Shown: positions 15,145-19,095 of the stretch, one piece after another
Numbering within the stretch: the first letter of the stretch is position 1
How the letters are laid out: each line of letters starts with the position of its first letter
Assembly: GCF_044324785.1 (NCBI RefSeq)
Contig: NZ_CP172127.1
DNA length: 64,000 nt
Source of the DNA: Escherichia coli
Lineage (GTDB): Bacteria; Pseudomonadota; Gammaproteobacteria; Enterobacterales; Enterobacteriaceae
Strand: one strand, 5' to 3'
Position numbers and translations under genes: made by a program
The notes under the pieces: generated by a model
What the model was told of the DNA's origin: nothing
Seen by the model: the letters and a program-made list of their open reading frames with translations, nothing else
Database searches by the model: none

Positions 15145-15168
15145 CGCATTACCATTCAGGGAGGAATA

Positions 15169-15768
15169 ATGGCTGACTATTTTGAAATACGTGCTGATTA
15201 CAATCAGCACACCATCACGGTTTATCAGGCTTACAATGATGCAATCGCTGACGTCGCCGTACGTGACGGGCGATTTGGCGCACCTTTTTCATTCAACCGC
15301 ATGACCTGGATTAAACCCTCTTTTATGTGGATGATGGAGCGTAGCAACTGGGGACTGAAAAAAGATCAACAACGCATTCTCGCAATCCGAATCAAACGCA
15401 CCTTCTTTGATACATTGCTGGAACAAGCGGTGCTAACCACGCCAGAAGCCCATGTCTATCCACATGCAGGAGTTTGGGAAACGTTATTTGCGCAAGCAAA
15501 TGTATATGTTCAGTGGGACCCAGAACGCAGCATAAATGGTAAAAAACTGGAGCACCGATCATTACAGCTTGGTATTTCTCGTAACTTGATCAGTCAATTT
15601 AACGAAGACGCCATTGTTGCCATTGATGATCTGACACCACTGGTGCGAAAGTGTCATAACCTTTTGATAAACGGTAAAACAACACAGGCGAAATCCTTCC
15701 TGCCGCCAGAAAAAATTTATCCTGTTAGTGCAGCTGCAAGAAAGGCTTTGGGAATGAAAAATTTCTGA
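15169..15768 (+). CDS. Hypothetical cytoplasmic protein (199 aa), accessory, inserted between apaH and folA; resembles a conserved domain of unknown function (possibly DUF4291-like, from memory only)
   Basis: Strong SD (agggagg) 7 nt upstream of the ATG; clean 199-codon ORF; by eye less GC-rich than neighbours; no signal peptide or TM segment; absent from the K-12 apaH-folA junction. Confidence 0.75.
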   Translation: MADYFEIRADYNQHTITVYQAYNDAIADVAVRDGRFGAPFSFNRMTWIKPSFMWMMERSNWGLKKDQQRILAIRIKRTFFDTLLEQAVLTTPEAHVYPHAGVWETLFAQANVYVQWDPERSINGKKLEHRSLQLGISRNLISQFNEDAIVAIDDLTPLVRKCHNLLINGKTTQAKSFLPPEKIYPVSAAARKALGMKNF

Positions 15769-15803
15769 GACAAATACGCGCCTATTAAGCGGAAAATATC
15801 TAA

Positions 15804-16253
15804 GTGCGACAAATCAACGCCGGGCTTAATACCAGAGAAATTATTCTGGAAATGATTGACGAAGCAGATGAACCCCCATTTGCTGAGCAGCGAACCTGGC
15901 ATCGCAGGCGAATCACTTTTCTTTGTGATTGCATCAGCGTTGCTGTCGACTACGGCTTCTTCTGTTCTGTCTCTCAGCAGTCAATAATGAACATAACCAG
16001 GATGGCTGAAGATGTATGGATAACAGAAAGTAAAACGACCCAACTCATTGATATCTGGCAGCAACTTAAGCAGCTTTATCCGCCAGAAATTATTCCCTAC
16101 ACCCAGCAGTTACCCGCTAAAGAATTGCTTGAACTGCTACTTTCCAGTCCTGACGATCTTCGAATAATTGAAATCCCTGACGTCATCGGTGATTTTTTTG
16201 ATGACCAAACCTGGATTCGATTATTCAAAAAACACTTTGCTGATGTTATCTAA
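15804..16253 (+). CDS. Hypothetical acidic protein (149 aa; start uncertain), second gene of the apaH-folA insertion
   Basis: ORF follows the 199-aa gene on the same strand after 35 nt; GTG start without a clear SD (an in-frame ATG lies 16 codons in); D/E-rich, predicted soluble. Confidence 0.5.
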   Translation: MRQINAGLNTREIILEMIDEADEPPFAEQRTWHRRRITFLCDCISVAVDYGFFCSVSQQSIMNITRMAEDVWITESKTTQLIDIWQQLKQLYPPEIIPYTQQLPAKELLELLLSSPDDLRIIEIPDVIGDFFDDQTWIRLFKKHFADVI

Positions 16254-16569
16254 CTATGATGTGATGTGTAACAATCTAAAATACATCGCCAGACGACAGA
16301 CCAAAAAGAAAGTATTTAGCAGATACTCAACATTCTGACTTATGTACAGAAATAGCAGAGTTTAAAAACTTAAAATTTCCGGTACTCATCAGAGAAACAT
16401 CCTGTTTCTTCTGCAAGTTCATTTAATGCCGAGATGGCATCCTCGTTTACTTCAGTCCACTGTAGAGTGGCTTGAGGGTTTAGACCTACGCAATGAGCGC
16501 GACTCACAAAATCGCGCTCACTGGTAAAATCAGACGTCTTATCGTTCAATTTGTAGTCATAGCAAAAAC

Positions 16570-19095
<2,526 letters not shown>

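Follow-up and report, generated by a model that had tools for sequence, protein, structure and literature searches.

The 1,425 bp that separate the convergent genes apaH and folA (positions 15145-16569) in a 64,000-nucleotide stretch of Escherichia coli DNA (contig NZ_CP172127.1 of RefSeq assembly GCF_044324785.1; here referred to as the window) are one of the three alleles common at the folA-apaH locus, a known insertion hotspot of E. coli. This allele holds two intact open reading frames (ORFs) on the same strand, one encoding a protein of the family DUF4291 (ORF1) and one encoding a member of a small unnamed family whose proteins resemble orphan immunity proteins (ORF2), together with a decayed copy of the antitoxin gene ccdA on the other strand. 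We favor the reading that these are three independent cargo genes sharing one hotspot over the reading that ORF1 and ORF2 are a matched pair, and give it a probability of about 0.6. The gap would then be a mosaic: three small pieces, each with an origin of its own, are now passed on as a group within Escherichia through homologous recombination. ORF1 would be an intact enzyme with an ADP-ribosyltransferase (ART) fold expressed by read-through from the apaH operon, ORF2 an orphan-immunity-like protein that binds and blocks an incoming contact-delivered toxin, and the ccdA relic the leftover of a ccd toxin-antitoxin module that formerly occupied the slot.

One of three common alleles at the apaH-folA junction

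The folA-apaH intergenic region has been reported as plastic and as the home of the chromosomal ccd(O157) module (PMC7167474, PMC3184786, PMC7232551), an allele that the same three papers credit to Mine et al. 2009. An earlier sequence-only reading of the window correctly described the 1,425-bp gap (apaH ends at 15144 and the minus-strand folA at 16570) as an insert carrying two same-strand ORFs but did not recognize this hotspot. It gave a spacer of tens of base pairs for K-12, and in BL21/K-12-type strains the gap indeed measures 77 bp, including a palindrome resembling repetitive extragenic palindromic (REP) sequences; the same figure for the short gap is given in PMC7232551. The whole cassette is present in 536 of 5,426 complete E. 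coli genomes (9.9%), and all sampled rows of these carriers are annotated with the same three genes. A ccdA-ccdB allele is carried by 2,022 genomes (37%). The remaining genomes, taken in bulk rather than one by one, include the short allele of the REP type. Each of the three alleles is bounded exactly by the apaH and folA stop codons. Relative to ccd(O157), the window has the same slot and likewise a minus-strand ccdA-family gene beside folA; here, however, ccdB is absent, ccdA is a relic, and two unrelated plus-strand genes fill the remainder.

The guanine-plus-cytosine (GC) content of the gap is 0.43, compared with 0.56 for apaH and 0.53 for folA, which agrees with the lower GC that had been judged by eye and with the horizontal origin suggested from it. 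Further evidence of transfer comes from Escherichia whittamii, which carries the same three-part cassette (199, 155, and 59 aa). Between the window and E. whittamii, synonymous divergence (dS) is 0.44 for apaH and 0.42 for folA but only 0.08 for ORF1, 0.11 for ORF2, and 0.03 for the ccdA relic. Given such low dS between diverged flanks, the cassette moved between the two species as a block after they separated, presumably by recombination through the conserved flanks. The three pieces themselves are imported and probably mutually unrelated. Repeats or mobile-element ends flanking the gap were considered and rejected, as only short repeats at chance level were seen, and an Rfam scan found no structured RNA of a known family in the gap.

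ORF1 is a DUF4291 protein with a predicted ADP-ribosyltransferase fold

ORF1 starts with an ATG 24 bp past the apaH stop codon, with GGAGG 5 nt upstream, and a terminator scan between the two genes found no terminator-like site. Read-through from apaH is therefore likely, and ORF1 is most likely translated from read-through transcripts of the apaH operon; the cotranscription proposed by the sequence-only reading is thus probable, judged from sequence signals. The encoded protein matches the Pfam family DUF4291 (PF14124), which that reading had named, over its full length (E = 2.2e-68; residues 6 to 184 against all 180 model positions, 1 to 180). The family motifs defined in PMC12522546 (QA[YF], WIK, and [AS]IQ) are all represented, as YQAY at residues 19 to 22, WIK at 47 to 49, and SLQ at 131 to 133, and residues Q20, W47, K49, and Q133 are invariant across 29 aligned sequences. 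ORF1 thus shows no family-level difference from other DUF4291 members. In selection tests summed over three lineages, its ratio of nonsynonymous to synonymous substitution rates (dN/dS) was 0.08 to 0.27, with an excess of synonymous changes that departs from neutrality (P = 1.4e-5). ORF1 is intact and under strong purifying selection.

The DUF4291 family comprises at least 7,799 protein clusters (E below 1e-10). Its mean column identity across Proteobacteria, Firmicutes, and Bacteroidota is 58%, an unusual level for a conflict toxin. To our knowledge, no member has been characterized experimentally. A 2025 survey predicted DUF4291 to be an atypical ART and found NUDIX, Macro, ARH, KptA, and TetR genes to be frequent neighbors; it mentions neither a match to RhsP2 nor the apaH-folA context (PMC12522546). 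Searches of DUF4291 against the PDB by sequence, profile included, returned no match. The structural model of ORF1 has an ART fold whose closest solved relative is the C-terminal toxin domain of RhsP2 (PDB 7RT7), an RNA 2'-OH ADP-ribosyltransferase delivered by a type VI secretion system (T6SS). We know of no other RNA 2'-OH ADP-ribosyltransferase. ORF1 and RhsP2 share 10% sequence identity, with no match at the profile level, and ORF1 stands alone, without the Rhs or delivery domain of RhsP2. The catalytic triad of RhsP2 is R-Y-E, and its E1576Q variant is inactive; DUF4291 is assigned Q / W-I-K / Q in place of the ART triad, with an invariant Gln at the position of the catalytic Glu (PMC12522546). 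An ART with an H-Y-Q triad has been reported as active (bioRxiv 10.64898/2026.05.07.723553).

A Chryseobacterium homolog that is 57% identical to ORF1 lies in an island of NAD and ADP-ribose genes. This 10-kb island of Chryseobacterium lactis (L008, 1-10594) includes genes for a NrtR-type NUDIX regulator, NADAR, a 2OG-Fe oxygenase, an adenylosuccinate-synthetase-like protein, PARG, DUF2971 (also predicted to be an ART), SIR2, an ADP-ribosylglycohydrolase, PM0294_C, and KptA. Bacterial PARG has been shown to reverse RNA modification of the RhsP2 type (PMC11833690). In Listeria, a DUF4291 homolog follows a histidine-phosphatase gene. The nearest DUF4291 outside Escherichia, 82% identical, is that of Superficieibacter electus; it too lies between apaH and folA and has the same layout as in E. 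coli, 44 bp after apaH. We infer that ORF1 is an enzyme that uses NAD or handles ADP-ribose, with a nucleic acid or a nucleotide as its substrate, and we think that it is not a growth-arresting toxin that needs an antidote.

A phage origin of DUF4291 was rejected, since only 5 loci were found among 2.9 million viral contigs. The five IMG/VR contigs concerned (L029-L033) carry relatives at 41 to 61% identity, two of which are apparently split or frameshifted.

ORF2 is a probable immunity-family protein

ORF2 is small and acidic, as had been noted (149 aa; isoelectric point [pI] 4.55), and searches of Pfam, NCBIfam, PADLOC, and PDB sequences gave nothing significant for it. Its relatives became visible through S. 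electus, in which the gene after DUF4291 encodes 218 aa with 47% identity to ORF2. NCBI annotates this homolog (L026 / P0134) only as a 91-aa hypothetical protein, and the database entry therefore lacks its zinc-ribbon N terminus. A HMMER search with the 218-aa protein against 1.84 billion representatives returned only 16 matches, and a profile search for the family recovered 43 clusters, all of them devoid of Pfam domains. When a narrower ORF2 alignment was run against 100,044 species representatives, the enterobacterial type occurred only in S. electus and E. whittamii. A 1,542-aa match to the family (P0136) was dismissed as a repeat-driven artifact. Full-length members have 207 to 244 aa and an N-terminal zinc-ribbon-like CPxC..CxxC motif; E. 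coli ORF2 lacks this motif, its sequence starting only with the conserved GL(S/N) motif, but retains WHRRRI(A/T)F and LFKKHF. Zinc-ribbon-less versions of about 145 aa occur elsewhere in the family (P0174, P0176). The dN/dS of ORF2 is 0.23 to 0.31, again with a synonymous excess (P = 7e-4 versus neutrality). With homologs and purifying selection for both genes, we rejected the possibility that ORF1 and ORF2 are chance ORFs.

The distant members of the ORF2 family for which enough flanking sequence was available all lie in long same-strand arrays of small genes in gut Bacteroidota. Most of these arrays hold known immunity families (Imm43, Imm12, Imm44, Imm5, Imm45, Imm-NTF2, SUKH/SMI1_KNR4, PoNi, Barstar, and TriTu), some adjoin SusC/SusD genes in gut metagenomes, and in three contexts (L016/L018, L021, and L035) a full-length tyrosine recombinase gene stands at the 5' end. 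In their same-strand, small, low-GC genes, their immunity families, and their tyrosine recombinases, the arrays resemble the recombinase-associated acquired interbacterial defense (rAID-1) clusters of Bacteroidales (bioRxiv 10.1101/471110). E. coli ORF2 differs from this arrangement in being a single gene in a core-genome slot, outside any immunity array and without a recombinase or the zinc-ribbon N terminus. The best structural match of the all-helical ORF2 model is the immunity protein SsdAI (PDB 7JTU chain B), which counteracts the T6SS DNA deaminase toxin SsdA. The match is moderate only and not significant (Foldseek E = 0.35); ORF2 is 9 to 10% identical to SsdAI and to DUF416 proteins, without a sequence-profile match, and no deaminase toxin lies nearby. 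Because of the array context, which is guilt by association, and the moderate fold match, ORF2 probably belongs to an immunity-protein family.

A ccdA relic beside folA

The roughly 316 bp downstream of ORF2 that had been described as a noncoding tail contain a minus-strand gene remnant, and the supposed two-gene cassette, both of whose genes are real, is a three-part mosaic. The stretch at 16370-16549 matches Pfam CcdA (E = 3e-8) at model positions 39 to 71 only, that is, in the C-terminal half, and in strain N3, whose locus is identical, the RefSeq record labels 16370-16507 a CcdA-family antitoxin. An ATG start is missing, with a TTG at 16549. Compared with CcdA of the O157 type, the relic has 45% protein identity and a 14-aa internal deletion; it keeps the CcdB-binding C-terminal half and falls short of a full-length CcdA, which has a DNA-binding N-terminal part as well. 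Recent descent from the O157-type allele was rejected, as the relic and the ccdAB allele share 79% nucleotide identity over just 77 bp. A tblastn search with O157-type CcdB over 15100-16600 gave no match to a residual ccdB. The dN/dS of the relic is 0.25 to 0.53, with P = 0.17 versus neutrality on too few changes for a judgment. We conclude that 16370-16549 is a decayed ccdA whose partner ccdB has been lost. In Superficieibacter (L005, 6558-7178, minus strand) and in a related metagenome contig (L028, 1530-2144, minus strand), the folA-proximal position holds a PRiA4_ORF3 (PF07929) gene where E. coli has the ccdA relic; the folA-proximal part of the slot thus turns over too.

Independent cargo or a matched pair

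The sequence-only reading had considered a toxin-immunity, toxin-antitoxin, or small stress/defense module. If ORF1 and ORF2 were a matched toxin-immunity (toxin-antitoxin) pair, DUF4291 would be an active toxin that ADP-ribosylates its target, perhaps RNA as in the case of RhsP2, and ORF2 would bind and block it; the module would ride on the apaH operon. Several observations suit this arrangement and weigh against independent cargo. A basic ORF1 (pI 9.3) whose predicted fold is closest to a genuine toxin domain is followed, 35 bp on, by an acidic helical protein whose best structural match is an immunity protein, which is the classic look of a toxin gene and its immunity gene. Both genes are under purifying selection, and their synteny is kept in a second genus, Superficieibacter. 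Furthermore, the identity of the catalytic residues of ORF1 is that of the published prediction; the immunity role of ORF2 rests on gene neighborhood and the moderate fold match; and in roughly ten contexts read, a small sample, no recognizable toxin gene stood beside ORF2-family members. The distribution of the two families nevertheless argues for independence. They differ about 180-fold in size, and profile scans of all 39 fetched loci found them together only in Escherichia and Superficieibacter, in the latter with 200 bp between the genes. Each occurs without the other in the same slot in other enterobacteria: a 189-aa zinc-ribbon homolog of ORF2 stands alone 20 bp after apaH in one (L009, with flanks 80% identical to those of E. 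coli), and in L028 the gene after a DUF4291 with 80% identity encodes an unrelated protein of 175 aa without a Pfam match. DUF4291 is alone or has an unrelated neighbor in L007, L008, and L029-L033 as well as in L028, and in the fetched loci we found neither DUF4291 in immunity arrays nor ORF2 relatives beside other DUF4291 genes. The adjacency across genomes that marks a toxin-antitoxin or toxin-immunity pair was thus not found. We favor three independent cargo genes because a cognate immunity gene should still track its toxin at 80% identity and ORF2 does not. Two properties of DUF4291 itself also count against an active toxin, namely, its exceptional conservation, eukaryotes included, and the invariant Gln at the catalytic Glu position (PMC12522546), the same change that, as E1576Q, kills RhsP2. 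A known defense system was rejected: models of PADLOC-DB 2.0 gave no family at E up to 1 for any of the three proteins, NCBIfam gave no match, and PHROG gave no meaningful match. Searching the literature for the RefSeq accessions of the proteins brought up nothing. ORF1 and ORF2 are probably not a matched pair, a reading that we consider unlikely; what stands of the module first proposed is an immunity-like ORF2 and a toxin-like fold of ORF1, and what finds no support is their union into one unit. The more specific proposal that DUF4291 is an active RhsP2-like ART on nucleic acid with SsdAI-like ORF2 as its dedicated inhibitor in Escherichia and Superficieibacter is slightly less likely again. 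Were it true, the growth-rate-regulated apaH operon would drive a toxin-immunity module of a new type, based on an ART, with a new pairing of immunity fold and toxin.

It is also unlikely that ORF1 is the sole functional gene, with ORF2 and the ccdA relic as decaying remains of what filled the slot before. The internal deletion, missing ATG, and lost ccdB of the relic fit such decay, and ORF2 shows signs that could be read in the same way, including the absence of CPxC..CxxC, a weak ribosome-binding site ahead of its GTG start, a stop codon that shifts between lineages (149 or 155 aa), and a dN/dS above that of ORF1. ORF2 is, however, open in all lineages seen, E. whittamii included, has a dN/dS that departs from neutrality, and retains the entire conserved helical domain; zinc-ribbon-less relatives of similar length exist, and all three genes are annotated in every sampled carrier. 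Very unlikely, in our judgment, is an "antidote islet" in which ORF2 would act against a contact-delivered toxin, the C-terminal CcdA fragment would counter CcdB from plasmids, and DUF4291 would guard against toxins with ADP-ribosylating activity. This would accommodate the immunity-array context of the ORF2 family, the preserved CcdB-binding half of CcdA, and the PARG and NADAR genes beside Chryseobacterium DUF4291, which have been shown to protect against ART toxins (PMC11833690). The predicted fold of DUF4291, however, is that of a transferase rather than a hydrolase, and the ccdA relic shows neither significant purifying selection nor a normal start codon. Three independent cargo genes therefore remain the reading that we prefer.

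Feature coordinates and related loci

The coordinates of the locus are listed in Table 1. The region 15000-16700 is 100% identical in strain N3. Further upstream, pdxA (12102-13091) is intact in the window, with 329 codons for amino acids, yet is annotated as frameshifted in N3, which could reflect a sequencing error in the N3 assembly or a real upstream difference.

Table 1. Features of the apaH-folA region in the window
Feature	Position	Strand	Description and basis
apaH	14296-15144	+	Final core gene in the surA-pdxA-rsmA-apaG-apaH operon; its stop codon bounds the variable region on the left; ORF list, RefSeq annotation of strain N3 (identical locus), allele boundary alignment
apaH-ORF1 spacer	15145-15168	+	24 bp with GGAGG ribosome-binding site; sequence and terminator scan
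ORF1	15169-15768	+	199 aa; DUF4291; predicted ADP-ribosyltransferase fold
ORF2	15804-16253	+	149 aa; GTG start, weak ribosome-binding site; acidic, all-helical
AT-rich spacer	16254-16369		116 bp, GC 0.37-0.40; where ccdB would be expected
ccdA relic	16370-16549	-	Pfam CcdA match and RefSeq annotation
folA	16570-17049	-	Its stop codon bounds the variable region on the right; ORF list, annotation, boundary comparison

Part of the locus has also been found on a plasmid. pSW2367-1 (L034, NZ_MG252036.1, 34992-45168), an IncF/IncN/IncR resistance plasmid, carries a chromosomal fragment with kefF-kefC-folA, the ccdA relic, and a stub of ORF2; the fragment is flanked by IS26 and IS1 and adjoins blaTEM-1 and aph(3')-Ia. 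The IS1 junction is also present in one chromosome (strain EF7-18-58, L025). This looks like capture of chromosomal folA mediated by insertion sequences, and the captured folA might raise trimethoprim tolerance through gene dosage.

Implications

The hotspot and the DUF4291 family were already known, so that the finding is real but mostly explained; what is new here is the link of DUF4291 to RhsP2 and the finding of ORF2-family genes in immunity arrays. Neither is a new kind of system, and the toxin-antidote unit first proposed is probably not real. The picture of a well-known hotspot is nonetheless corrected, in that about 10% of complete E. coli genomes have, in place of ccdAB or the short allele, a three-part cassette that has moved between Escherichia species. 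Two leads follow. A very large, uncharacterized family, DUF4291, is structurally closest to RhsP2 and is here present in a tractable E. coli setting, and ORF2 defines a rare, unnamed candidate immunity family common to the immunity arrays of gut Bacteroidota and to enterobacterial chromosomes.

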